Virus record (IMG/VR): IMGVR_UViG_3300023179_000070
Coordinates: 18,053-82,052 of that record
Length of the DNA: 64,000 nucleotides
Strand: one strand, 5' to 3'
Source of the DNA: a virus
Taxonomy: Duplodnaviria; Caudoviricetes
In this document: positions 17,484 to 55,003 of the stretch, in pieces
Position numbering within the stretch: position 1 is the first letter of the stretch
How the letters are laid out: each line of letters starts with the position of its first letter
Notes under the pieces: model-generated
The model's database searches: none
What the model saw: only the letters and a program-made list of their open reading frames with translations
Told to the model about the DNA's origin: nothing
Translations under genes and position numbers: made by a program

Positions 17484-18446
17484 TCAATCTAAAAATTCAT
17501 CTTTTGTTTCATCAAGAAAATCATCTTTTTTGATAGGTGTTTGAAATCTAGGACATCCTTCATATTGTCGAGTTTCTATTTTAAATCCTTTTATATCTTT
17601 AAAATTATCTTCTAAACTAGTTTCTATAATTTCATTTTTATCATTAAGCTTAACGTAATATGTATATGGATCTTTGTATGGACATTTCCATCCTCCGACT
17701 TGACACATCCATTTATTTTTTTGATTATCTATTGCAAAATTAGATCTAGCAGATTCTTCATTAAATTTATTGATATAATCATTAATATGTTCTAAATAAT
17801 GTTCAAATCCTTTAATTTGATTATCATCAAATGATAATTCTTGGATAGGTTGTTTTGGAAATCTAAGAAATAAGAATTTTACTATTGGTTTTAATTTTGG
17901 CCATAATTTTTTGCTAGCAAGACTATACATCATCGCTTGAATATTAGCTTCAAGGTCATCACCCCTAAACTTATATTTGGAGCTTTTGTAGTCAATTATA
18001 TGCATTTCTTTTTTAATTTTAATAGGTTTATCTATAAAACCCTTAATATGATATTTAGGTTCTTCATTTACAATATCAAAAGAATATTCTGGTTTAACTA
18101 TTTCGCCACCTTCACCAAAGAAATCATTTTTAAGCCCAACTAGTATCATATCATTTAATAATTTATAATTACTTTCATCTAATTTGACTTTTGCAGCTAA
18201 TTTTTTGACTAATCTTGAGACTCCTTTATCGCCATCTATAGAATTTTTCTTGATAATTCTTTTATAGTTTTTAAGATGTCTTTTATTTAATAATAATTCA
18301 AAAATAGTATGACAAATCGTACCACGATCACTTCCATCATTAGATCTTTGTGGAATTTTTAAATGATAATTTAACCAATATGTCCATGAACATGTTTCGA
18401 GAGTTTTTATTCTTGAAGCAGATAAAGTTTTATTTTGATGGGTCAT
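17484..18446 (-). CDS. PD-(D/E)XK nuclease (Cas4/RecB-like)
   Basis: LSASRIKTLETC, GTICH, GFIDK, IIDYKSS, QAMMY, C-terminal cysteines. Confidence 0.85.
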   Translation of the reverse strand: MTHQNKTLSASRIKTLETCSWTYWLNYHLKIPQRSNDGSDRGTICHTIFELLLNKRHLKNYKRIIKKNSIDGDKGVSRLVKKLAAKVKLDESNYKLLNDMILVGLKNDFFGEGGEIVKPEYSFDIVNEEPKYHIKGFIDKPIKIKKEMHIIDYKSSKYKFRGDDLEANIQAMMYSLASKKLWPKLKPIVKFLFLRFPKQPIQELSFDDNQIKGFEHYLEHINDYINKFNEESARSNFAIDNQKNKWMCQVGGWKCPYKDPYTYYVKLNDKNEIIETSLEDNFKDIKGFKIETRQYEGCPRFQTPIKKDDFLDETKDEFLD

Positions 18447-35174: not shown

Positions 35175-35562
35175 TGGACCCGAGAGGAATTGAACCTCTG
35201 TCTTTTAAAAATCTAAATTAAAATACTACAAGTTTAGTTCTTTTTGTTTTTAGCTTTATATAGATAAAGAACAAACATACTTAGCGATTTTATTTTTAAT
35301 ACTTAATATTAATAGAATAAAAAAACTATTAATAATAAGACATCTAATTCCGCAACTATCCAATAGATGTGTCAAGGTAGTCACGCTGTAGAACTTAGGC
35401 TACAGAAGCGGTCATCTCAACAAGAGGAACTCTTGCAGAGATATGACCTTTATATTTTGCTGTTTTGGCAGTTAATATAATTGAAACTTTTTAAGGAGTC
35501 CTCGATTCAACCTCCACTTGCATTTCAATTTATTTTCTTAAAATCGAAACCAGTACGGGCCC
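35175..35562 (-). ncRNA. ssrA: tmRNA
   Basis: 5' GGGCCCGTACTGGTTTCGA pairs with 3' CGGGTCC-A, including the G3:U70 Ala determinant; T arm AGAGG-TTCAATT-CCTCT; pk1 GGAG/CTCC + TTGAA/TTCAA; tag ORF 35469-35395. Confidence 0.93.
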
Positions 35563-35634
35563 AATGTTAAAGAACTAACTAATATTACACATTATAAAGC
35601 TTTTAATAATTTTTGACAATCTTTTTTTAAATTA

Positions 35635-36573
35635 TTAATCGCCGCAATCTTCCTTATCGTCATAATCATGTTTTGATGTTTTTTGGGCGCAACCCATAAA
35701 ATTTTCATCATTTACAGTTCCCGAATCTTTTTGAGAATTATTTGAACCTTTTGTTTCTAATCCGTCTTGGGTAATTGCAACTACTTGATGTACATAATAG
35801 GATTCTGTTCCATCTCCATTATTATGAATAAATTCAATTGTATCGCCAATTCGTACATCTTCTAAATCACAAAGAAGATTTGTTATTATTTGTTCGCCAG
35901 ATTTTAGATCTGGGTGCATCGAAGAACCCTTTATTTTAGAAATCTTAAATCCTCTTTTTAGTTTAAGTTGCGATCTTCTTGGAAGAGTATTTTGTGGATG
36001 GTTTGTTTCTTTATATGGATCGCAATCATTTTTTGAATCTTTTGGTTTCATATCTTTTGCTGCCTCAGTTAATTCTTTTGTTTGATCTTTATCTGCTAAT
36101 TCATTACATGATGGACAATCTGCTCCACAATCATGCTCATTTTCGTAAGATTCTATTCTTGTGTCGTATTGTATTTTTATTTTATATTCAGCTAACATTG
36201 CGGCTGGTATATCATCTCCTGTTTCACAATTTACCCATGAATAATTTGTGAGACATTGATCAAAAGTTGCATCAATATCTTTAATGTCTGGTGGATTTTG
36301 ATTTTTTGTTATCAATGTTCCTCCGCATGTATTTATGCACGCTTTAGAATCTTGATTTGAATTTTTAGGAATAGAATTCTCTATTTTAACTCCAGATTTT
36401 TTATCTAAGATAATTTTCGGAGGTAAAACTCCTGAAGTGCCCTGATTTTTTTTAAGTGTCCAGGGCCCAGGAGGTCTAGATGGAATAGTTTTTAAACCAC
36501 CAATGCGCTCACCATATATAATTGCATCTGTAGTTATAGTAGTCCATTTAGTTTTTCTTTTACAACATCCCAT
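35635..36573 (-). CDS. Cys-rich protein with C-terminal S24/S26 (SipW-like) peptidase domain
   Basis: KGSSMHPDL..IGDTIEF..YVHQVV..TKGSNN..D. Confidence 0.7.
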   Translation of the reverse strand: MGCCKRKTKWTTITTDAIIYGERIGGLKTIPSRPPGPWTLKKNQGTSGVLPPKIILDKKSGVKIENSIPKNSNQDSKACINTCGGTLITKNQNPPDIKDIDATFDQCLTNYSWVNCETGDDIPAAMLAEYKIKIQYDTRIESYENEHDCGADCPSCNELADKDQTKELTEAAKDMKPKDSKNDCDPYKETNHPQNTLPRRSQLKLKRGFKISKIKGSSMHPDLKSGEQIITNLLCDLEDVRIGDTIEFIHNNGDGTESYYVHQVVAITQDGLETKGSNNSQKDSGTVNDENFMGCAQKTSKHDYDDKEDCGD

Positions 36574-36580
36574 AGAATTA

Positions 36581-38071
36581 TTAGTCCTTTCCTTTATTTA
36601 AAAAGTTTTGTAATTTTCTATATTTTTTATTTTTTATTATAAGTTCTGGTATATTATTTTTAATAATTTGACGAATTTTATTTGAAATAGTATATCTTGC
36701 ATTTTTTTTCGCTGCATCTAGTGATGCATTTATATTATTTCCATATCCTCTACCAATTGCGTTTATATTATAATTAATAATTTCTACATTAGTATTATTA
36801 ACTTTTCCTTGTGAATTAAAAGAAGTTTCATCATAATTTAAAATTAAATTCTCTCTAATATAATAATTTATTTTTTGATCTAAAGCATCATCTGTTCCAA
36901 ATCCAGAGTATACAATATGAAATTGATTGTGTGTTCCAATTTTTTTATTTAATTCTGTTGAAATTAATTCTATTGTAAAATTAGTGTAAGCTGGAATTAT
37001 TCCATTCCAAGTGCCTGTATTAAATGTTTTATTTCCAGTATATAAACCTGTATAAAATTTATAAAATAAAGTATCTTTAATTGGTATATTTTGTGTTAAA
37101 TGTTGATTTTTATCTAATGAAATAAAATTATATATTCCAGTTTTTGGAAAAATATCTCCACTATAATATTCGCTTCCTAAAGTTAATGCTGGAATTTTAA
37201 TTCCTGATGAAATTTTTGTATTTATGGTAGTGGTCTTTTTATTAATTGTATTTATATTGTATACTAATGTATTTTGATATCCAGTATGAATTCCATGGGG
37301 AGAAATATAGCATATATTATATTTTTCTCCATTCCCAGTTGATATTAAAATTATTCCATTCAAATTTTTAGAATTAGTTTGATTTGTATCTAAATAATTA
37401 TATATTGGCGCAATTTTTGTATCACAAATATATGCATTATATTGCCAATTTTGTAAAGAACTTGGATAACTTAAATAAAAACCACTATAACTAGGATTTC
37501 CAGGAATTGCTCCAGAAGTATTGGATTTTGTCCATGCTCTATAAAATGTACTATTTGTAAAATCTAATCCTGTAAAAAATCCTGAAATTAAACTTGGATT
37601 ATATTTTTGATTATATTCACCTGTTAGTATTTTTGAATTTGAAAAATCTTTTGTAAAAGTAGCTCTAATAAATGTTTCATTTTTATTTAAATTAGTTATT
37701 TTTGGTTTTGTTTTATAAAATTGTTGAAAATAATCATAATTATTTGAATAAAAAATATATTCATCTGGAAAAAAATAAGATAATTGTCCAATTAATGGAA
37801 TTTCTAATTTATAATTTGTATAATTTTTTTTAAATTCTATAGGTATATGATAAGTTTGATAACTTTCTGAATTTTTTTTTGATTCAATTTTATTTTTTAA
37901 AATAAGTTCTAATTCTGGATTTTTTAAAGTACCTACATTAATTATATCTAATTTGACATTTTGTAAAGATTTATGTGTTATTTTTTCGTCATCAATAAAT
38001 TGTGATTCAGAATTTACTTTAAAAGTACTCCCAAATCCTAATTTAATTAAATCTTGTTTTGAAATTGACAT
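36581..38071 (-). CDS. hypothetical protein, probably virion-associated (SG/TG-rich)
   Basis: 496 aa, many SG/TG dipeptides as in the tail proteins. Confidence 0.6.
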   Translation of the reverse strand: MSISKQDLIKLGFGSTFKVNSESQFIDDEKITHKSLQNVKLDIINVGTLKNPELELILKNKIESKKNSESYQTYHIPIEFKKNYTNYKLEIPLIGQLSYFFPDEYIFYSNNYDYFQQFYKTKPKITNLNKNETFIRATFTKDFSNSKILTGEYNQKYNPSLISGFFTGLDFTNSTFYRAWTKSNTSGAIPGNPSYSGFYLSYPSSLQNWQYNAYICDTKIAPIYNYLDTNQTNSKNLNGIILISTGNGEKYNICYISPHGIHTGYQNTLVYNINTINKKTTTINTKISSGIKIPALTLGSEYYSGDIFPKTGIYNFISLDKNQHLTQNIPIKDTLFYKFYTGLYTGNKTFNTGTWNGIIPAYTNFTIELISTELNKKIGTHNQFHIVYSGFGTDDALDQKINYYIRENLILNYDETSFNSQGKVNNTNVEIINYNINAIGRGYGNNINASLDAAKKNARYTISNKIRQIIKNNIPELIIKNKKYRKLQNFLNKGKD

Positions 38072-38143
38072 ACATTTATGTTTAACCTTAACCCACCCAC
38101 TTCGCCCGTTTTAACTACTAGCTTTTCTGGGGCAGGTCTAAAT

Positions 38144-38363
38144 CATTTTGTTATCGTTAAATTGTTTATATTTAACATCTTTATATCACTATAAAGTTCA
38201 GACTATATCTTCTTACTTTCGTAAGTTTGGGCGCTCGTGGGCAATGTTATTGTTGGAACTCAATCGCCTAGTCGTTACACCTTACAACCTATCTTTCCCA
38301 GTTGTCTTGGCTCGGTATAATCTATTTTAGATTTCCACCGAATTCACCCAAAATGGTCATTTA
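38144..38363 (-). ncRNA. group I (IA-type) ribozyme core not interrupting any gene
   Basis: P3 TTTGGGTG/CGCCCAAA; P4 TTCGGT/ACCGAG; P5 AATCTA/TAGATT; Q ATACCGAGCCAAG; R GTAACGACTA; P7 GACTA/TAGTC; P8 CTTAC-GAAA-GTAAG; S AAGATATAGTC; P9 CTTTATA-GTGA-TATAAAG; candidate omega-G at 38144. Confidence 0.9.
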
Positions 38364-38419
38364 TTTAATAAAGAACTATTTTTTATTACACTATTTTTTT
38401 ATTTGTGTAATATAAATAT

Positions 38420-38998
38420 ATGCCTAATTTATTACCATATAGAGATTACAATGAGCACGATGTAATTAATTTATATACTTGCGTGACAGTTGCAAATAAA
38501 GGTATATTAGTTAAACCAATAACTTCCCCAAAAGATGATAATGGGACAGATAACTCTAGCGCTGGTCCATTAAAACTAACTTCTGATGGAGTTGGTGAAA
38601 GATTTAAAAATACTATAAGTGATTTATTTGAAATTGTAGGAGAGGTTTCTCCAGTTGTCAATTATAATGACGTTCCAGGACCAATAGGTATTTTATTGTA
38701 TGATGTTAGGGATTTAGATGAAAATGGTGAAAAATTAATATATAATCCACGAAAAATGGCAGAAAAAAATATAGTTCTTCCAAAAGTTCAAGCGGCACCA
38801 ATTTTAACTAAAGGAATTATTTTAATAAATGATATAGATACTTTGAGTAAAACTGGCGGTGGAGGATTACCTTCTATTGGTGCAGCTGCTTATGTTGGTG
38901 ATGATGGTAGGATAGGAACTGATGGAATAATAGTATTAGGAAAATTTTTAAGTAAAATAGATCAAAATGGTTACTGTTTGGTTAAATTAAATATTTAA
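38420..38998 (+). CDS. putative capsid decoration/cement protein
   Basis: LLPYRDYNEHDVINL, GILLYDVRDLDENGEKL, PILTKG, LGKFLS..DQNG pattern; late promoter at 38405. Confidence 0.45.
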   Translation: MPNLLPYRDYNEHDVINLYTCVTVANKGILVKPITSPKDDNGTDNSSAGPLKLTSDGVGERFKNTISDLFEIVGEVSPVVNYNDVPGPIGILLYDVRDLDENGEKLIYNPRKMAEKNIVLPKVQAAPILTKGIILINDIDTLSKTGGGGLPSIGAAAYVGDDGRIGTDGIIVLGKFLSKIDQNGYCLVKLNI

Positions 38999-39193
38999 TA
39001 AATTTTGACAATCTTTTTTATAAACAAAATTAAATTTAACTCTTGATCCATTTATATCAGAAATTAGCTGGGGTATTGCGATACATGGATATTGCTCTGG
39101 TTCATCATAAATATTCTCATTAGAAATATTATAATGCTTAACACATTTATTTGCATAAGCTGACCATCTGGCTTTATTTTTTATAATTTCCAT
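38987..39193 (-). CDS. hypothetical protein
   Basis: ATG at 39193 (MEIIKNK) preferred over the track start 39220. Confidence 0.55.
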   Translation of the reverse strand: MEIIKNKARWSAYANKCVKHYNISNENIYDEPEQYPCIAIPQLISDINGSRVKFNFVYKKDCQNLLNI

Positions 39194-39213
39194 TAATATA
39201 TTATAAAAATAAT

Positions 39214-39242
39214 TTGACAAAACTTCAAACTTAATATATTAT
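39214..39242 (+). promoter_or_regulatory. sigma70-type promoter driving a non-coding region
   Basis: TTGACA-17 nt-TATTAT with no downstream plus-strand ORF of 60 aa or more. Confidence 0.7.
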
Positions 39243-39249
39243 AAGTTTA

Positions 39250-39575
39250 CATAGTTCCCAATTAGAGCAGTTTGTTGATGTCAAATAATCAACTATCAAT
39301 CCTTGAGATAGCAATGTCCTAAGGGCTGACAACTATTAAAACCTTCATTTGTACATAATATGGCTAAAGAAGGAAATGTAGCTATAGGCATCGCAGAATG
39401 TAGTGATCGAAGCTACCTCTGATCCGTAAGTGCGATGGCCCATTCATCACTGAGATCGTGGTGAAATTTGGAGTCAAAAGAAAAGTTGGATTGATAATAC
39501 CCAACTTCAGATATTTAAAATCTGGAGGTAAAGCCCTTTTGGATATCAAAGAAAAGTTAAATAATTAGGATATCG
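39250..39575 (+). ncRNA. unassigned structured RNA (~325 nt)
   Basis: about 10 helices, a GCAA tetraloop, a pseudoknot and G-U pairs favouring the plus strand; higher GC than the flanks; own promoter. Confidence 0.6.
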
Positions 39576-39577
39576 TA

Positions 39578-40093
39578 TTAAAACCAAACTTCATTATGTA
39601 TTATTCTTAATATTTTAATCCAGTCTTTAAGATGTTCTGATATATGTATTTTGTCTGAATTTTCAAATCCATTTTTTGCTATATTATAATATATATTTTC
39701 TGATGGATAAGCTCTTCTTGCTTTATGTAAGTTTTTATAAAAAAATCCTAAAAATACTAAAAGTGATTTAGCTGTATCTTCGTCATGTTTGAATTCTAGT
39801 ATAGATTTTTTAAAAATAGGCTCTCCAATTAAATCATAGAATTTTAAACCAACTGCTTCTGAGACATATTCTTTTTCTTCAAATGAATATTTTAAATCTT
39901 TACTATATTTTATAATAGTTATTTCTGCAAATACTGGAAAACTTATATCAACAATCCCATCTATATCTTCTTCTGAAATTTTATTTAATATTTCTGGCAA
40001 ACAATCTGGATCTTGGATTAGTAAAAATGCTTTTTCTGGAGATAAGTCCAATTTTTTAGCAAAGAAATCAATATCTCTTTCAGATACTATCAC
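39578..40093 (-). CDS. hypothetical protein
   Basis: 171 aa ORF, GTG start. Confidence 0.65.
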   Translation of the reverse strand: MIVSERDIDFFAKKLDLSPEKAFLLIQDPDCLPEILNKISEEDIDGIVDISFPVFAEITIIKYSKDLKYSFEEKEYVSEAVGLKFYDLIGEPIFKKSILEFKHDEDTAKSLLVFLGFFYKNLHKARRAYPSENIYYNIAKNGFENSDKIHISEHLKDWIKILRIIHNEVWF

Positions 40094-40135
40094 TAATATT
40101 ATTACATTTTAAAAGTGTAATTTAGATTAAATATT

Positions 40136-41122
40136 ATGTTTAAATATATACTTGGATTATCAGCCTTCTTATTAGCTTCTTGCGCAGCATTCTTTTCAGT
40201 TAAAGGAATAGCTCTACTTTTTGCAGCTAGTTTTTGGAGCGTTGGAATAATGGCTGGAAGTTTAGAAATAGCAAAATTAGTTAGCGCAAGTTATCTTTAT
40301 AGATATTGGTCAGTAATACATGATTTACTTAAAAAATATATGCTATCTGCTACGATATTACTGATGTGCATAACAAGTCTTGGTATTTTTGGTTTTCTTT
40401 CTGATGCTTTTCAACGTAATTTTTCTCAATATTCTTTAAACTTAAATAAAATTCAAAGTTTAAAATCTCAACAAAATTTTTATATTTCTCAAATAGATTT
40501 CAATAAAAGCAAATTAAAAGATTTAATTGAATTACAAAAAACATATCAAACATCTCTAGATAATGCCGTTAAACAAGATGTGACTACAACTAAAACTACT
40601 GGCGGTGGATTTTTCAGTTCCGCTAAAACTGAAAAAGTAACAGATATTAAATTAGTAGAAAGTAAAAATAAAATAGTTGAAGGATCTCAAGTTAATATCA
40701 ATAACTTATTTTCTCAAATATCTACAGTAACTTCTGATCTTCAAAATTTAGAAAAACAAAGTCTAGAAAATAGTCAAGAAATAATGAGACTAGAGAGTGA
40801 TAATACAAAAGGCGAAATTGGTACATTTAAATTTGTAGCTGATGCATTTGGATTAAAAATAGAAACTGCAGTAAGAATATTTATTATATTAATTGTTATT
40901 GTTTTTGATCCATTAGCAGTATGTTTAGTTATAGCTTACAACTCAATTATTAAAAAAGTAGAAAATCAAGAATTGCAAAAAACAGAACAAAAAATTAAAA
41001 ATATTATAGATAAACCATTAGATACTTTTAAAGTATTTTATGAAAATCTACATAAAAATTTTAAACGTGGTACAAAAATGCAACATAATCCAGAATTAGC
41101 TGACCCAAATATCAAGCATTAA
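40136..41122 (+). CDS. membrane protein with long coiled coil
   Basis: three N-terminal TM segments (SLEIAKLV, TSLGIFGFLS), coiled coil, IVFDPLAV TM. Confidence 0.75.
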   Translation: MFKYILGLSAFLLASCAAFFSVKGIALLFAASFWSVGIMAGSLEIAKLVSASYLYRYWSVIHDLLKKYMLSATILLMCITSLGIFGFLSDAFQRNFSQYSLNLNKIQSLKSQQNFYISQIDFNKSKLKDLIELQKTYQTSLDNAVKQDVTTTKTTGGGFFSSAKTEKVTDIKLVESKNKIVEGSQVNINNLFSQISTVTSDLQNLEKQSLENSQEIMRLESDNTKGEIGTFKFVADAFGLKIETAVRIFIILIVIVFDPLAVCLVIAYNSIIKKVENQELQKTEQKIKNIIDKPLDTFKVFYENLHKNFKRGTKMQHNPELADPNIKH

Positions 41123-41298
41123 TATTTTTTAATTTTATAATTTTTAGTTGTAGGATCTAATTTAAGAACATGAGCTTTAGCTTTTATTAAGCCTTCTTTT
41201 GATGGAGGAAAAATTCCATGAAGAAAATTATCACTTTTACTATAAACAGCGTAATATTTAAGTTGTTTCTTCTTTTTTGTTTTGATTTTCTTTTTCAT
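41119..41298 (-). CDS. small basic hypothetical protein (59 aa)
   Basis: MKKKIKTKKKKQLKYYAVYSKSDNFLHGIFP...; read by hand, just under the ORF-track size. Confidence 0.5.
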   Translation of the reverse strand: MKKKIKTKKKKQLKYYAVYSKSDNFLHGIFPPSKEGLIKAKAHVLKLDPTTKNYKIKKY

Positions 41299-41527
41299 TT
41301 GTAATTTTTGTAAGATGCTCTCTTAGAGAGTCTCTAGCTTTTTCGCAGAAATCTTGATTTAATTGACCACAACAGTTTTTGAATTTTTTACCAGTATATG
41401 GGCAAATTGTATTTCTTGGTACTTTTGGATATATTCTTACTATTGGACTGAACTCTGTTGCCCTAGCATATTCAATCGAAGTTAATTTGTCTATATTTTC
41501 TTTATTCATTTTAATATTATAAGGCAT
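41258..41527 (-). CDS. SEC-C motif protein
   Basis: KVPRNTICPYTGKKFKNCCG. Confidence 0.65.
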   Translation of the reverse strand: MPYNIKMNKENIDKLTSIEYARATEFSPIVRIYPKVPRNTICPYTGKKFKNCCGQLNQDFCEKARDSLREHLTKITNEKENQNKKEETT

Positions 41528-41544
41528 TTATTAATTTAAATCAA

Positions 41545-42654
41545 TTATTTTCCATGAGCGAATCCTTCATACATGCTATTTGGGCTATTTCTAACAGCTT
41601 GTATGGTATTATTCCATAAACCACCGCGCATATCTTGTAAATTCCTGAAACCAAGATAACTCATAGAGCTTCTCAAACCATTAGTAAAATCATATACAAT
41701 ATCCTCAATAGATTTATTTTCAATAATTGGAATCAAAGTATTATCTCCTTCGACAAATAAATTCTTTTTGGTTCCATCATATAAATCATAATCTTCTACA
41801 ACATCTTGGCTAGCCATTCCTCTGTATTTAGCAAATCTTTTACCATCAATTTCAATAATATTTTCATCGTCTACAACATCAGACAGTCCAGCGAAAATTC
41901 TACCACAAATAACAGCATCGCATCCACTAGCGATAGCTTTTACTAAGTCTTTTGGATATCTAATGCCACCATCAGCCAGAATACTTGGTCTATGAGATGG
42001 GTTAGGTTTGTCTTGTTTAAATAAATCAACTTGAGAAAGTTCCCAATTCCTCACAGCCTTCCAAGCGTAATAGTTTCCAGTTAGACTTGGACATCCAATT
42101 CCAGTTTTAACTTGAGTTAAGCACATAGAACCTGGACCAATCAAATGTCTAAATCCGTCTGATTTAAGATTAGCTAATCTATAAACGCTTTCTTTCGTTA
42201 AAGTATTACCAACTATAACATCTTGTGAAAATCCAGCAGTTTTATACCATCTTAAAAAATCTTCTACGTTTTTAGCTAAACCATTAGCTGTATCTAAAAA
42301 GTAAACATTAGTAAAAGTACTAGTAGCTCTAATTCTTTCTTCTGCATCTTTTAAACCAATAGCAGTAACACAAAAATCACTTTCATTTTTAATAATTTTA
42401 GCTTTAGCTCTCTGATCATCAACACTCATAAATCTATGCAAAACTCCAGCTGCACCAAGTTTATTCATTTTAATACAAGATTTAACAGATGATACTGTAT
42501 CCATAGGAGAAAGAATAATTGGAATTTTGATACTACAATTTCTTGAAATTTTAGTAGTAGTATCTACTTCTTTTCTTGAGGTAATATTTGAAAAATTTGG
42601 AAGTAATGAAATATCATCATAACTTAAAGCTTCTTTGAATTCTTGTTTTTGCAT
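41545..42654 (-). CDS. guaB: IMP dehydrogenase / GMP reductase family (no CBS domain)
   Basis: SPMDTV, IGPGSMCLT catalytic Cys, ADGGIR, KYRGMAS, GLRSSMSYLG; guaB versus guaC not resolved. Confidence 0.85.
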   Translation of the reverse strand: MQKQEFKEALSYDDISLLPNFSNITSRKEVDTTTKISRNCSIKIPIILSPMDTVSSVKSCIKMNKLGAAGVLHRFMSVDDQRAKAKIIKNESDFCVTAIGLKDAEERIRATSTFTNVYFLDTANGLAKNVEDFLRWYKTAGFSQDVIVGNTLTKESVYRLANLKSDGFRHLIGPGSMCLTQVKTGIGCPSLTGNYYAWKAVRNWELSQVDLFKQDKPNPSHRPSILADGGIRYPKDLVKAIASGCDAVICGRIFAGLSDVVDDENIIEIDGKRFAKYRGMASQDVVEDYDLYDGTKKNLFVEGDNTLIPIIENKSIEDIVYDFTNGLRSSMSYLGFRNLQDMRGGLWNNTIQAVRNSPNSMYEGFAHGK

Positions 42655-42732
42655 TTCTTTATATTAAACTATTCTTCTCAAACAATCAAGAAAATAATTG
42701 ACTTAAAAATAAAAAAGTTTTAATATGTCTTT

Positions 42733-42804
42733 ATGTTTCAAACAGTTGCATGTATCATAATGGGTATTATAATATCTTTATATTGGCATTTTTCTACAAA
42801 ATGA
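42733..42804 (+). CDS. 23-aa hydrophobic peptide
   Basis: MFQTVACIIMGIIISLYWHFSTK; ATG 6 nt after TTGACT-17-TAATAT; ATGA overlap with the next gene. Confidence 0.5.
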   Translation: MFQTVACIIMGIIISLYWHFSTK

Positions 42805-43214
42805 ATAATAGAATATCATTTATTGAAGCAGCAATTCATACTGCTCAGATTTGGTCGAATAGATCAGAAGATCCATATAAAAAAGTTGGAGTATGTATCT
42901 TAAATAAAGATGGAAGAGTATTATCTGTTGGATATAATGGTCTTTTACCAAAATTTAATATTAAACAAGATTTTTTTAATGACAGAGATAATAGAAGAAA
43001 ATATATGATTCACGCCGAAATCAATGCATTATCTCTTATAAAAAGAAAAGATGATCCTTATTTATTAGCTTCTACATTATTACCTTGCTCAAATTGTGCA
43101 ACAAATATTGTTGCATATGGAGTTAAAAGTGTGGTATACTCAGAAGAATATGAAAAGGATTCTACAGCAAAAGAAATATTTAAATTTTATAATATAGAAT
43201 TAATTAAAATATGA
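42801..43214 (+). CDS. dCMP deaminase
   Basis: SVGYNG, HAEINA, PCSNC; start 42801 inferred from ATGA coupling. Confidence 0.9.
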   Translation: MNNRISFIEAAIHTAQIWSNRSEDPYKKVGVCILNKDGRVLSVGYNGLLPKFNIKQDFFNDRDNRRKYMIHAEINALSLIKRKDDPYLLASTLLPCSNCATNIVAYGVKSVVYSEEYEKDSTAKEIFKFYNIELIKI

Positions 43215-43699
43215 AATATATAATACTATTATCTTTTATAGCTAATTTTGCTATTGCACAATCTGGAGTAGTTTATGAAACATATAAAACTACAGGTAGT
43301 ACTAATGAATCACATGGAACAATTTTTACAAAACCTTTTCAAGAATATAATTATGTCAAAACTGCTAGAGGTATAGAAGTTTATGAAACATATAAAACTG
43401 GAGGAGGAAATTCAACGAATCAATCTCATGGCACAATATTCTCTAAACCTTTTCCAGAGTTTATTATAATTCAAAACAAAATGTATAGAACATATAAAAC
43501 TGATGCAAGCTCTACAAACCAATCTCATGGAACGATATTCACTAAACCCTTTGAGTCTAAGGATATTGATGAAAATGTAGATACAAAAAGTTTAAAAGAA
43601 AATATACAAACTCAAGTACGAACTCAAGAAATTCATACTGGACAAAATTATCCAAAATATGACGGAACTGGAGAAATATCTTATGGAGAAGAAAAATGA
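43211..43699 (+). CDS. secreted protein with three internal repeats
   Basis: signal peptide MKYIILLSFIANFAIA; 3x YxTYKT..NxSHGTIFxKPF. Confidence 0.7.
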   Translation: MKYIILLSFIANFAIAQSGVVYETYKTTGSTNESHGTIFTKPFQEYNYVKTARGIEVYETYKTGGGNSTNQSHGTIFSKPFPEFIIIQNKMYRTYKTDASSTNQSHGTIFTKPFESKDIDENVDTKSLKENIQTQVRTQEIHTGQNYPKYDGTGEISYGEEK

Positions 43700-44283
43700 T
43701 AGGATTAACTGGAGTAGCTAGATCTGGAAAAGATACTTTTTATTCAATACTTCAAAAGTATTTAGAAGAAAAAAATATTAAATCTCAAAGAATTGCTTTG
43801 GCAGATAATCTAAAAAAAGAACTTGGAGATTTTACTAAAGAAAAATTTAAAATAGATTTAAATAAATGTGAGGGTAAGGATAAAGAATTAATTAGACCAC
43901 TTATGGTTGCTTATGGTAAATGCAGAAGAGTTCAAACAGAAGGAAAATACTGGACATCTTTAGTAGAAACAGAAGTTAAAAATCTTAAAAAAGACAATAT
44001 TATTCCAATAATTACAGATGTAAGATATATAGAATATAAAGAAGATGAATATTCTTGGCTGAAATCACACAATGGTATTCTTATTCATATTTCTAGAAAA
44101 CTAGACGATGGATCTTTAATTCCTCCAGCTAATATTGAAGAAAAATCTAATGATAATAAACTTAAAGCTGTTGCAGATTACTCGATTTCTTGGGAAACAT
44201 GTCAAGATGTTAATTTTTTATATGAACTTATGCAAAAACAATTAAAAAATATTTATGAAAAATATATGGAGAATAAAAAATAA
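43696..44283 (+). CDS. deoxynucleoside monophosphate kinase
   Basis: GLTGVARSGKDT, ITDVRY. Confidence 0.8.
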   Translation: MIGLTGVARSGKDTFYSILQKYLEEKNIKSQRIALADNLKKELGDFTKEKFKIDLNKCEGKDKELIRPLMVAYGKCRRVQTEGKYWTSLVETEVKNLKKDNIIPIITDVRYIEYKEDEYSWLKSHNGILIHISRKLDDGSLIPPANIEEKSNDNKLKAVADYSISWETCQDVNFLYELMQKQLKNIYEKYMENKK

Positions 44284-46288: not shown

Positions 46289-46642
46289 ATGCCATTGTAT
46301 ACTTATATCCATCCAGAAACTGAAGAAACAATAGATGTTGTGCAATCTGTGCATGATAAGCATATATTTATTGATAAAGATGGAATAGAATGGAAAAGAG
46401 TTTTTACAGTTCCAGAAGTTAATACACAAGGTACATTAAAAGCGGATGCAACAGATAAACAATTTGCAGAATATACAAAAAATCAAAAAGGTTCAATTGG
46501 TGATCTTTGGGATAGAAGTGCAGAGCTTTCTGAAAAAAGAAAAAAAATCTATGGTGGTCAAGATCCAGTAAAGAAAAAGTATTACCAAGATTGGAGCAAA
46601 AAAAGAAAAGGCAGAGTACACCCAAAAAAACATTCTGACTGA
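46289..46642 (+). CDS. FmdB-like ribbon protein (cysteines lost)
   Basis: MPLYTY start and WKRVFTVP. Confidence 0.5.
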   Translation: MPLYTYIHPETEETIDVVQSVHDKHIFIDKDGIEWKRVFTVPEVNTQGTLKADATDKQFAEYTKNQKGSIGDLWDRSAELSEKRKKIYGGQDPVKKKYYQDWSKKRKGRVHPKKHSD

Positions 46643-46718
46643 ATTGTTAATAAAGTTTAAAAATTTTCTTTCTTTAGTTTAAAAAATAATGTAATATAGT
46701 TTTTGCGCTAGTTACATT

Positions 46719-54437: not shown

Positions 54438-54953
54438 ATGAAATATAAAAATAATAATTGTAAATTTTGTAAAAGATTAATTTTAAATAAAGGCTCACTA
54501 GTTTCTCATATGCTATGTTGTATTAAAAATAAAAATAGAGTTAAAAGAATAAGATCCTCAAAAGCTGGTAGAAAGAAAGGGTCAATCGCTTGGAATAAAA
54601 ATAAAAAATTTCCAAATAAAATTTTAAATCGAATACTATTCCAAATAAAATCTGGAGAATATAAACAATTTTGTGAAGCAGTAATAAGAAGAACAGTTAA
54701 ACAATATTTAATATATAAATATGGTAATAAATGCATGATCTGTGGTTTAACAGAATGGCAAAATCAAAAAATACCATTGGTATGTGATCACATTGATGGA
54801 AATCCACAAAATATCAACATAACAAACTTTAGAGTTATTTGTAATAATTGTGATTCATTATTGCCGACATTTAAAGGAAAAAATAAAGGCAAAGGTAGGA
54901 AAGCGAGATATTCTGGAACGATGGCTGAGAGGTCTAAAGCAGAAGCCTACTAA
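54438..54953 (+). CDS. HNH homing endonuclease between two tRNAs
   Basis: CMIC..LVCDHIDGN..N..NFRVICNNC; AWNK motif. Confidence 0.85.
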   Translation: MKYKNNNCKFCKRLILNKGSLVSHMLCCIKNKNRVKRIRSSKAGRKKGSIAWNKNKKFPNKILNRILFQIKSGEYKQFCEAVIRRTVKQYLIYKYGNKCMICGLTEWQNQKIPLVCDHIDGNPQNINITNFRVICNNCDSLLPTFKGKNKGKGRKARYSGTMAERSKAEAY

Positions 54954-55002
54954 GCTTCCGATGGTTTAATATCATCCGTAGGTTCGAATCCTACTCGTTC
55001 CG
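54915..55002 (+). tRNA. tRNA-Ser(ACT)
   Basis: GGAACGA/TCGTTCC-G, GAAGC-CTACTAA-GCTTC, long variable arm GATGG..TCATC, GTAGG-TTCGAAT-CCTAC. Confidence 0.9.
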
Positions 55003-55003
55003 A

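Follow-up and report, generated by a model that had tools for sequence, protein, structure and literature searches.

The locus examined here raises the question of what a phage encodes in a 358-nucleotide (nt) gap between two minus-strand open reading frames (ORFs), one for 77 amino acids (aa) (38987-39220) and one for 171 aa (39578-40093). The gap lies in a window of 64,000 nt, which is the whole stretch that we analyzed and to which all coordinates refer, taken from positions 18,053 to 82,052 of IMG/VR record IMGVR_UViG_3300023179_000070. This source is an 82-kb uncultured virus record with ~25% G+C that is estimated to be 53% complete; the G+C content inside the gap is 39.5%. The initial annotation, made from the letters alone, had placed an unassigned structured RNA here, and its coordinates for the element were correct. 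Our analysis showed that the gap holds a stand-alone plus-strand gene with its own sigma-70-type promoter for an RNA of ~315 nt. The earlier idea of a novel phage noncoding RNA was supported by conservation, by compensatory change, by this promoter, and by the lack of an Rfam match in three clades of relatives; an Rfam hit or missing covariation, both set beforehand as findings that would speak against it, did not occur. We are highly confident that the element is genuine, that it is a structured RNA transcribed on its own, and that its family is new. The best overall explanation, to which we assign a probability of roughly one half, is a knotted stand-alone RNA that presents twin strands in trans. 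The gene is defined by the following two features.

39214..39242, plus strand: sigma-70-type promoter TTGACA-17-TATTAT (11/12 positions match)
39249 to ~39562, plus strand: RNA gene, a conserved block of ~315 nt

Conservation and distribution of the RNA family

Searching IMG/VR with the neighboring 171-aa protein gave 31 loci. The element was found in 22 of these at 88 to 96% nucleotide identity, as diverged copies in 2, and elsewhere on the contig in 4; 28 of the 31 contigs carry the RNA, and the remaining 3 are fragments that are 35 to 54% complete. Further viral and metagenome loci were contributed by pattern scans with invariant motifs. A search with nhmmer then comprised 164 matches, of which 148 were full-length copies and 93 were unique, and these form 3 clades (A, B, and C) at a distance of 25% and split into 13 subclades at 12%. 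All copies reside either on phage contigs of a single AT-rich group, with lengths of up to 173 kb, or on metagenome contigs, and the record titles and RNA-library labels indicate a lake or freshwater origin.

Where the RNA is 88 to 96% identical in nucleotides, the adjacent 171-aa protein is 74 to 99% identical in amino acids; at locus L019, the protein is 77% and the RNA 90.8% identical. Judged by these identities, the RNA is better conserved than the protein next to it. Conservation of the gene begins at ACATAG and fades past the second of two purine strands (described below) at ~39562, and 108 of the 311 columns of the RNA alignment (94 sequences) are invariant. No reading frame is kept in the gene; the maximum run without a stop codon, taken over all frames, is 42 to 99 codons depending on the copy.

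Scanning the genomes of 185,579 bacterial and archaeal species, one per species, with a first pattern returned 0 stretches; a second pattern, directed at the 5′ domain, returned 66 stretches from the same genomes, with no family member among them and the best reaching 12.4 bits, over the pattern alone. In viral contigs, the 5′-domain pattern revealed no new clade, and 4 of its 65 matches were due to chance. Fourteen of the 68 matches to a two-motif pattern were lysine-rich coding repeats, and all 47 non-family loci from single-motif scans lacked any other family signature and were rejected as coding look-alikes. A blastn comparison of the element with GenBank phage records gave no match.

A gathering-threshold scan of the window with Rfam 15 (4227 models) reported a transfer-messenger RNA (tmRNA) and three tRNAs only. 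Lax scans of one copy per clade returned Termite-leu for clade A (E = 3.5), leuA-Halobacteria and others for clade B (E of at least 0.47), and Spd-sr37 and Ref70 for clade C (E = 1.5 and 3.2); no family recurred across the three clades. These negatives are meaningful because the same tools find the tmRNA and a group I intron of the window. A full-text literature search yielded no description of the RNA family in the texts it covered, the supplements of which could still hold unlisted motifs. The family is in no RNA catalogue.

A knotted fold supported by compensatory change

Helices were derived by clade-by-clade comparison combined with a tree-aware count of simultaneous changes. Fold statistics were obtained from a 37-sequence MAFFT alignment and 500 shuffles; the shuffles ignore relatedness, and their counts are hence not probabilities. 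The model consists of 13 helices with 74 pairs and three crossing interactions, as follows.

39254-39257 with 39265-39268, plus strand: hairpin H1; 99.3% paired, 3/4 pairs change on both sides
39274-39279 with 39288-39293, plus strand: hairpin H2; 73% paired on MAFFT columns
39296-39302 with 39488-39494, plus strand: long-range helix LR1; 6/7 pairs change on both sides
39307-39311 with 39333-39337, plus strand: helix Px; covariation
39315-39318 with 39328-39331, plus strand: helix Py; covariation; its 9-nt loop bears the 5′ strand of LR2
39321-39327 with 39532-39538, plus strand: long-range helix LR2; 99.2% paired, 4/7 pairs change on both sides; crosses LR1
39342-39346 with 39369-39373, plus strand: hairpin D2; 4/5 pairs change on both sides
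39378-39382 with the D3 inner loop at 39412-39416, plus strand: PK2; 96.8% paired
39389-39395 with 39431-39437, 39398-39400 with 39425-39427, and 39405-39409 with 39420-39424, plus strand: D3, three stacked stems; 96.1 to 99.5% paired, 8/15 pairs change on both sides
39443-39450 with 39458-39465, plus strand: hairpin H6; 8/8 pairs change on both sides
39505-39512 with 39520-39527, plus strand: hairpin H8; 79% paired on MAFFT columns, 4/8 pairs change on both sides

In this model, 91.0% of the alignment cells were paired, compared to 79.5% in shuffled alignments, and 341 cells showed a double change, compared to an expectation of 108 ± 8.5; the covariation score was 0.379 against 0.189. None of these three values was reached by any of the 500 shuffles. 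Both sides change in 44 of the 74 pairs. As a control, partners were slid by 1 to 3 columns, which left 34 to 48% of cells paired and scores of 0.056 to 0.121. In the tree-aware count, the pair 39315-39331 went from U-A to C-G seven times, with both sides changing simultaneously and 100% of its states canonical, and several pairs of D3 and H6 underwent 3 to 6 simultaneous-change events. Sequence comparison thus showed the element to be a real, strongly constrained, knotted RNA with strong compensatory change. In this architecture, LR1 encloses Px/Py, D2, D3, and H6 and closes them into a four-stem junction, LR2 crosses LR1, and PK2 joins a linker to the D3 loop.

The long-range pairings were followed through the clades. 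LR2 reads AAGGGCU/AGCCCUU, GAAGGCU/AGCCUUC, CAGGCU/AGCCUG, or GAAGACU/AGUCUUC, and PK2 reads GUAGC/GCUAC, GUAGG/CCUAC, GUGGC/GCCAC, or GUGGA/UCCAC across clades. The strands of LR1 vary together even within clade C (GUAGUCC/GGACUGC, GUAGUCUC/GAGACUAU, GGUUUC/GAGAUC, and UUUGUCU/AGACAAA), with 10 base pairs in L233. The AUAG/CUAU of the Px/Py hairpin becomes AUGG/CCAU in clade B. In clades B and C, H2 is kept as a hairpin with other letters and lengths (GGAU/AUCC and AUAGUUUU/AAAAUUAU, read by eye). The lowest paired shares on MAFFT columns were those of H2 (73%), H8 (79%), D2 (83%), and LR1 (85%); registers read by eye pair better than the MAFFT columns, and the low scores arise at least partly because MAFFT leaves length variation unresolved. 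An alternative GGGC/GCCC pairing from RNAalifold was superseded by the 7-base-pair LR2, and a contact between the H1 loop and the NGGA motifs, which rested on 2 clade-level changes only, was contradicted by L048.

The complementary letters of every stem proposed in the initial annotation are present in the window sequence, and five of its 12 helices were kept by the comparison with relatives. GTTGAT/ATCAAC corresponds to H2, CCTTC/GAAGG to D2, CATCGCA/TGCGATG to the outer D3 stem, and TTCATCAC/GTGGTGAA to H6, while CAGAT/ATCTG was recovered as the inner part of the longer stem H8. The other seven (ATAGTT/AACTAT, CCTT/AAGG, GATA/TGTC, TATGGCTA/TAGCTATA, GTAG/CTAC, CAAAAG/CTTTTG, and AAGTTGG/CCAACTT) lacked covariation: jointly they were 79.6% paired compared to 79.2% in shuffles, their covariation score was 0.115 compared to 0.114 (reached by 182 of 500 shuffles), and a double change was seen in 4 of 39 pairs. 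In clade B, CUAU and the internal AUAG change jointly to CCAU and AUGG, with the 5′ AUAG unchanged; therefore, CUAU pairs internally, in Px, and not with the 5′ end, as ATAGTT/AACTAT would require. CAAAAG is invariant, whereas its proposed partner CTTTTG drifts to noncomplementary letters. AAGUUGG/CCAACUU can form in clade A only; it looks like a terminator when read on the minus strand, yet common CC-to-UU variants would break such a terminator. The claim of a pseudoknot held in that pseudoknots exist, but the one proposed (TATGGCTA/TAGCTATA) is absent in clade B and overlaps the covarying PK2. Likewise, of three GATC sites said to lie in loops or linkers, the third does lie in a variable hairpin loop, but the other two belong to a covarying stem (GAUCG/UGAUC, which becomes GGAAU/GUUCC or GGAGU/GCUCC in relatives), and none is conserved. 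The earlier fold was thus largely wrong in its long-range part.

Two identical purine strands

The longest invariant blocks of the RNA are two 18-nt strands that start 71 nt apart and consist of GGA, a short linker, and AAA(A)GAAAAGU.

39469..39486, plus strand: purine strand 1, NGGAGUYAAAAGAAAAGU; invariant except N and Y
39540..39557, plus strand: purine strand 2, NGGAUAUYAAAGAAAAGU; invariant except N and Y

No covarying pairing partner for either strand was found within the RNA family alignment. Their variable letters agree with each other, N1 with N2 and Y1 with Y2, in 94 of 94 sequences (N1 N2 Y1 Y2 being UUCC in 59, GGUU in 14, AACC in 13, UUUU in 7, and GGCC in 1). These concerted changes are suggestive of a partner that the twin strands would share. 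The complement of the strands was not enriched in the 64-kb window (20 11-mers compared to 11 ± 3.7; no 18-mer match within 3 mismatches). Duplex energies of the strands with the phage tmRNA were no better than those of shuffles (25 and 123 of 200 were as good).

Promoter, strand, and presence in RNA libraries

The promoter proposed earlier, TTGACA-17-TATTAT, was verified as a near-consensus site on the plus strand and is the best sigma-70-like site in 38900-40200. Exact TTGACA is present in 90 of the 91 unique copies with upstream sequence, and TAnnnT follows 17 nt on in 81 of these 90. The letters of the promoter spacer vary freely between copies, and conservation picks up again at ACAUAG. 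From the promoter spacing, we infer that transcription would start at ~39249-39250.

In the 13 helices of the 94 sequences, 515 cells were G-U and 90 were A-C, and this excess of G-U over A-C identifies the plus strand as the functional one. The folding energy of the plus strand was −79.1 kcal/mol (z = −2.03), mildly better than that of shuffles and no better than that of the minus strand (z = −2.70), so that thermodynamics alone picks no strand. Because the folding energy is weak, the case for an RNA rests on the comparison with relatives.

Twenty-two lake or freshwater metatranscriptome runs (21 studies) contain a small share of the words of the stretch. The contigs of all four metatranscriptome runs that were compared (4 studies) map onto the RNA, jointly covering 39260-39567, at the following positions.

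39267-39415 and 39386-39567: contigs of run 1
39268-39432: contig of run 2
39260-39676: contig of run 3
39265-39471: contig of run 4

One contig stops exactly at 39260, where it abuts adapter-like letters. These data show that RNA libraries contain the RNA, with the runs sharing a left boundary near the predicted start.

Proposed function

To our knowledge, large intricate RNAs with many invariant positions are rare, and those that are understood are ribozymes, riboswitches, or core machines. The RNA described here is unusual in being compact (~315 nt) while having three covarying crossing helices and two identical single strands whose variable positions change together. We propose that its rigid core would hold out the two identical, invariant, and apparently unpaired 18-nt purine-rich strands and that these strands would be the working part of the molecule. 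During infection, the RNA may act in trans as a scaffold or decoy to which a partner, either a protein or a nucleic acid, could bind as two copies or as a dimer. That the RNA works by presenting its twin strands to a partner is a tentative proposal. CsrB/RsmZ and 6S RNA are protein-sequestering RNAs, and those of the CsrB/RsmZ type display repeated single-stranded GGA sites. The likeness would be one of mode of action only, namely a stand-alone RNA whose structured scaffold repeatedly exposes unpaired sites that contain GGA. The RNA here differs in having only two sites, embedded in a knotted core, and no family match.

The identity of such a partner may be reflected in the neighborhood. Counting unique copies whose flank extends to 900 nt or more, 40 of 53 in clade A and 9 of 10 in clade C have a tmRNA gene no further than 800 nt upstream, invariably in divergent orientation. 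The spacing between the two RNA genes is typically 289 to 300 nt, a divergent promoter region is common to 49 of the 63 copies of clades A and C, and Rfam confirmed the tmRNA in 8 of the 10 loci scanned. Because the RNA is divergent from a tmRNA at ~290 nt in two of three clades, a partner in the translation or ribosome-rescue machinery is plausible, if only weakly indicated. A match to SmpB was found neither in the source record of the window nor in three RNA-bearing relatives that are 87 to 100% complete. If the RNA did act with tmRNA, phages would reprogram ribosome rescue by means of two co-transcribed RNAs, without an SmpB gene. We think it rather improbable that the RNA belongs to a new functional class acting with the phage tmRNA, be it a small RNA-only assembly, whose copies would be joined by the covarying long-range helices or the twin purine strands in the manner of GOLLD and ROOL, or a ribozyme or RNA cofactor. 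The RNA offers a handle on two questions, the role of orphan ornate phage RNAs and the reason for the presence of tmRNA in phages. Its family is sufficiently abundant to be seen in lake RNA libraries from several studies, and a molecule of this size is tractable for probing, cryo-electron microscopy, and pull-downs.

Several observations weigh against the trans-acting, twin-strand reading. The concerted changes of the twin strands amount to ~3 events, and the seven clade-A UUUU sequences (Y = U) form one subclade. In clade B, a tmRNA was present in 0 of 11 copies within 0.9 to 7.6 kb of upstream flank. The 108 of 311 invariant positions and the three crossing helices would be no less in keeping with a ribozyme or an RNA-only assembly. 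The contigs from RNA libraries are strandless and may include DNA carry-over; two of them extend beyond 39567, no terminator was found on the plus strand near the 3′ end of the RNA, and 39032-39251 is uncovered in the four runs, which the lower conservation of this flank may explain rather than silence. The proteins of the neighborhood give little direction: the neighboring proteins had no Pfam or PHROGs family match, and their sole NCBIfam match was a glyoxalase in the 328-aa protein, at 16.6 bits where the cutoff is 165.

Alternative explanations

We regard it as unlikely that the knotted core is catalytic and that the RNA is a ribozyme, either self-cleaving or acting in trans on, for example, the tmRNA precursor or a host RNA. 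Such a role would suit the large share of invariant columns, the three tertiary-type crossing helices, the position outside all 4227 Rfam families, and the adjoining RNA gene, since a tmRNA requires processing. Against it, no known catalytic motif and no evident cleavage site were found in the RNA, and it does not fit the topology of RNase P or of group I introns, a true example of which was detected 1 kb away by the same Rfam scans.

Of much the same low likelihood is an RNA-only homo-oligomer of the GOLLD or ROOL kind, in which LR1, LR2, PK2, or the twin strands would form the contacts between copies. ROOL and OLE RNAs are ~600 nt long. GOLLD and ROOL resemble the present RNA in being phage-encoded and ornate, in having their own genes, many covariation-supported helices, and pseudoknots, in coming from lake-derived sequence, and in adjoining other RNA genes (here tmRNA, there often tRNA islands). 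Covariation is blind to the distinction between intra- and intermolecular pairs, and identical strands would suit symmetric contacts. According to PMC12286853, covariation-supported contacts of GOLLD and ROOL proved intermolecular, including a covarying kissing loop in GOLLD, and OLE has a symmetric A-A helix between chains; by the same account, many GOLLD RNAs exceed 800 nt, far above the ~315 nt found here. The RNA had no similarity to the GOLLD, ROOL, or OLE models of Rfam, so that membership in GOLLD/ROOL was rejected, and it further differs from GOLLD/ROOL by its twin identical single strands and by its occurrence, so far, in one phage group only.

An RNA-primed replication origin, at which the polypurine tracts would form a persistent hybrid and prime leading-strand synthesis, had been offered in the initial annotation as the second option; we consider it very improbable. 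The gene does lie in the zone of the cumulative GC-skew minimum and orientation switch (~38 to 44 kb), it has two polypurine tracts, and the clade B copy is also at a divergence point. However, the skew changes where the genes switch strand, and this switch is by itself a sufficient explanation; moreover, the flanking genes in clade C are all on one strand. The nonconserved GATC sites, the three different genomic contexts, and selection acting on 13 RNA helices that include G-U pairs, a feature for which a primer has no use, likewise disfavor an origin.

A role as a cis-acting leader or riboswitch of the downstream gene has barely any likelihood left, being largely refuted by synteny. The candidate target is nrdA, which in all five clade-B loci examined lies 110 to 130 nt downstream of the RNA on the same strand. 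The RNA faces a convergent next gene in clades A and C and lies upstream of nrdA in clade B only. Moreover, nrdA is preceded both in the window (46640-46718) and in clade B (e.g., L057:7930-8037) by a conserved region that comprises TGTTAATAAA, a T-rich tract containing TTTTCTTT, and TGTAAYAT and that is probably its promoter or leader. Since nrdA of the window keeps this region despite a distance of 7 kb from the RNA, the RNA is not the nrdA leader; nor was a riboswitch family matched. The RNA gene is a portable, self-contained unit.

It is hardly credible that the RNA is a very divergent RNase P RNA, tmRNA, group I intron, intron-bearing tRNA, or reverse transcriptase template RNA, since the lax Rfam hits were unrelated and inconsistent (E of at least 0.47) although the same tools find the true tmRNA and intron. 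What speaks for such a relationship is a wealth of pseudoknots like that of tmRNA and a GAGG(U/G)AAAG(C/U)C stretch after H8, which we take to resemble the CR-I element of RNase P. The initial annotation had seen no RNase P, tmRNA, or intron signature, and the Rfam scans, ARAGORN, and the fold topology bore this out. The individual candidates were rejected as follows. For bacterial RNase P RNA, RF00010 and RF00011 gave no match at E up to 10. That RNA is of similar size and also has long-range helices, and its P4 helix is nested inside P2/P1; element order and helix topology therefore differ, as LR1 and LR2 cross. For group I introns, RF00028 gave no match at E up to 10 in 39100-39700. In the group I core, P7 directly adjoins the 3′ strand of P3, whereas here strands 2 and 3 of the knot are separated by ~160 nt and three domains. 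An intron within a host gene is contradicted by the RNA's own conserved promoter 7 nt upstream and by flanking genes on the other strand.

The tmRNA is comparable as a pseudoknot-rich stable RNA of 300 to 400 nt that is encoded by the same phages; the RNA here differs in having no paired 5′ and 3′ ends, no T-arm motif, and no tag reading frame. RF00023 and ARAGORN reported only 35175-35562, and a covarying pairing of the 5′ and 3′ ends was not found. A tRNA with an intron at the 5′ end was not found by the default ARAGORN scan of the window, with intron mode run only on 38000-38600. A template RNA of a retron or defense-associated reverse transcriptase is opposed by the lack of RVT_1 in all 3 RNA-bearing relatives searched (87 to 100% complete). 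ToxI is made up of tandem repeats that immediately precede, on the same strand, a gene for a ToxN-type toxin. A ToxI-like type III antitoxin was rejected here, as there are only two 18-nt repeats and the 171-aa neighbor is convergent and without a Pfam match.

Genomic context

Genes of the window include lambda-like tail proteins, Pol III alpha, DnaB, ribonucleotide reductase, three tRNAs, and the tmRNA. Two further RNA elements lie near the RNA gene.

35175-35562, minus strand: phage tmRNA (Rfam RF00023, 105.4 bits; ARAGORN)
38179-38397, minus strand: group I intron (RF00028, 58.7 bits, E = 1.9e-14, full model)

The tmRNA of the window is 3.7 kb from the RNA gene, with ~3.4 kb between them that contain three ORFs and the group I intron. 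Besides the intron, this interval (35563-38986) comprises ORFs of 496 aa and 192 aa and one for a 312-aa protein that weakly matches signal peptidase S26; it looks like an inserted cassette. The tag that ARAGORN predicted for the tmRNA, AKTAKYKGHISARVPLVEMTASVA, is unusual. The 77-aa ORF on the minus strand (38987-39220) nearly exactly fills the usual spacer between tmRNA and RNA and has counterparts with 40 to 49% aa identity in clade C; it may encode a small protein co-transcribed with the tmRNA from TTGAAG-17-TATAAT at 39228-39200. For the 171-aa protein on the other side, nothing usable was available in Atlas.

The group I intron was found by a lax local scan only and was missed by the gathering scan of the whole window. 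It is located in a noncoding gap between the 496-aa ORF (36581-38071, minus strand) and the 192-aa ORF (38420-38998, plus strand), and no interrupted protein frame or tRNA was found around it. Across ~36000-44000, the cumulative GC-skew minimum and a sign change of the AT skew coincide with a switch in gene orientation, from mostly minus strand to mostly plus strand. At 54914-55003 (plus strand), ARAGORN predicted a 90-nt tRNA-Ser with the anticodon ACT, in which the A at the first anticodon position is unusual.

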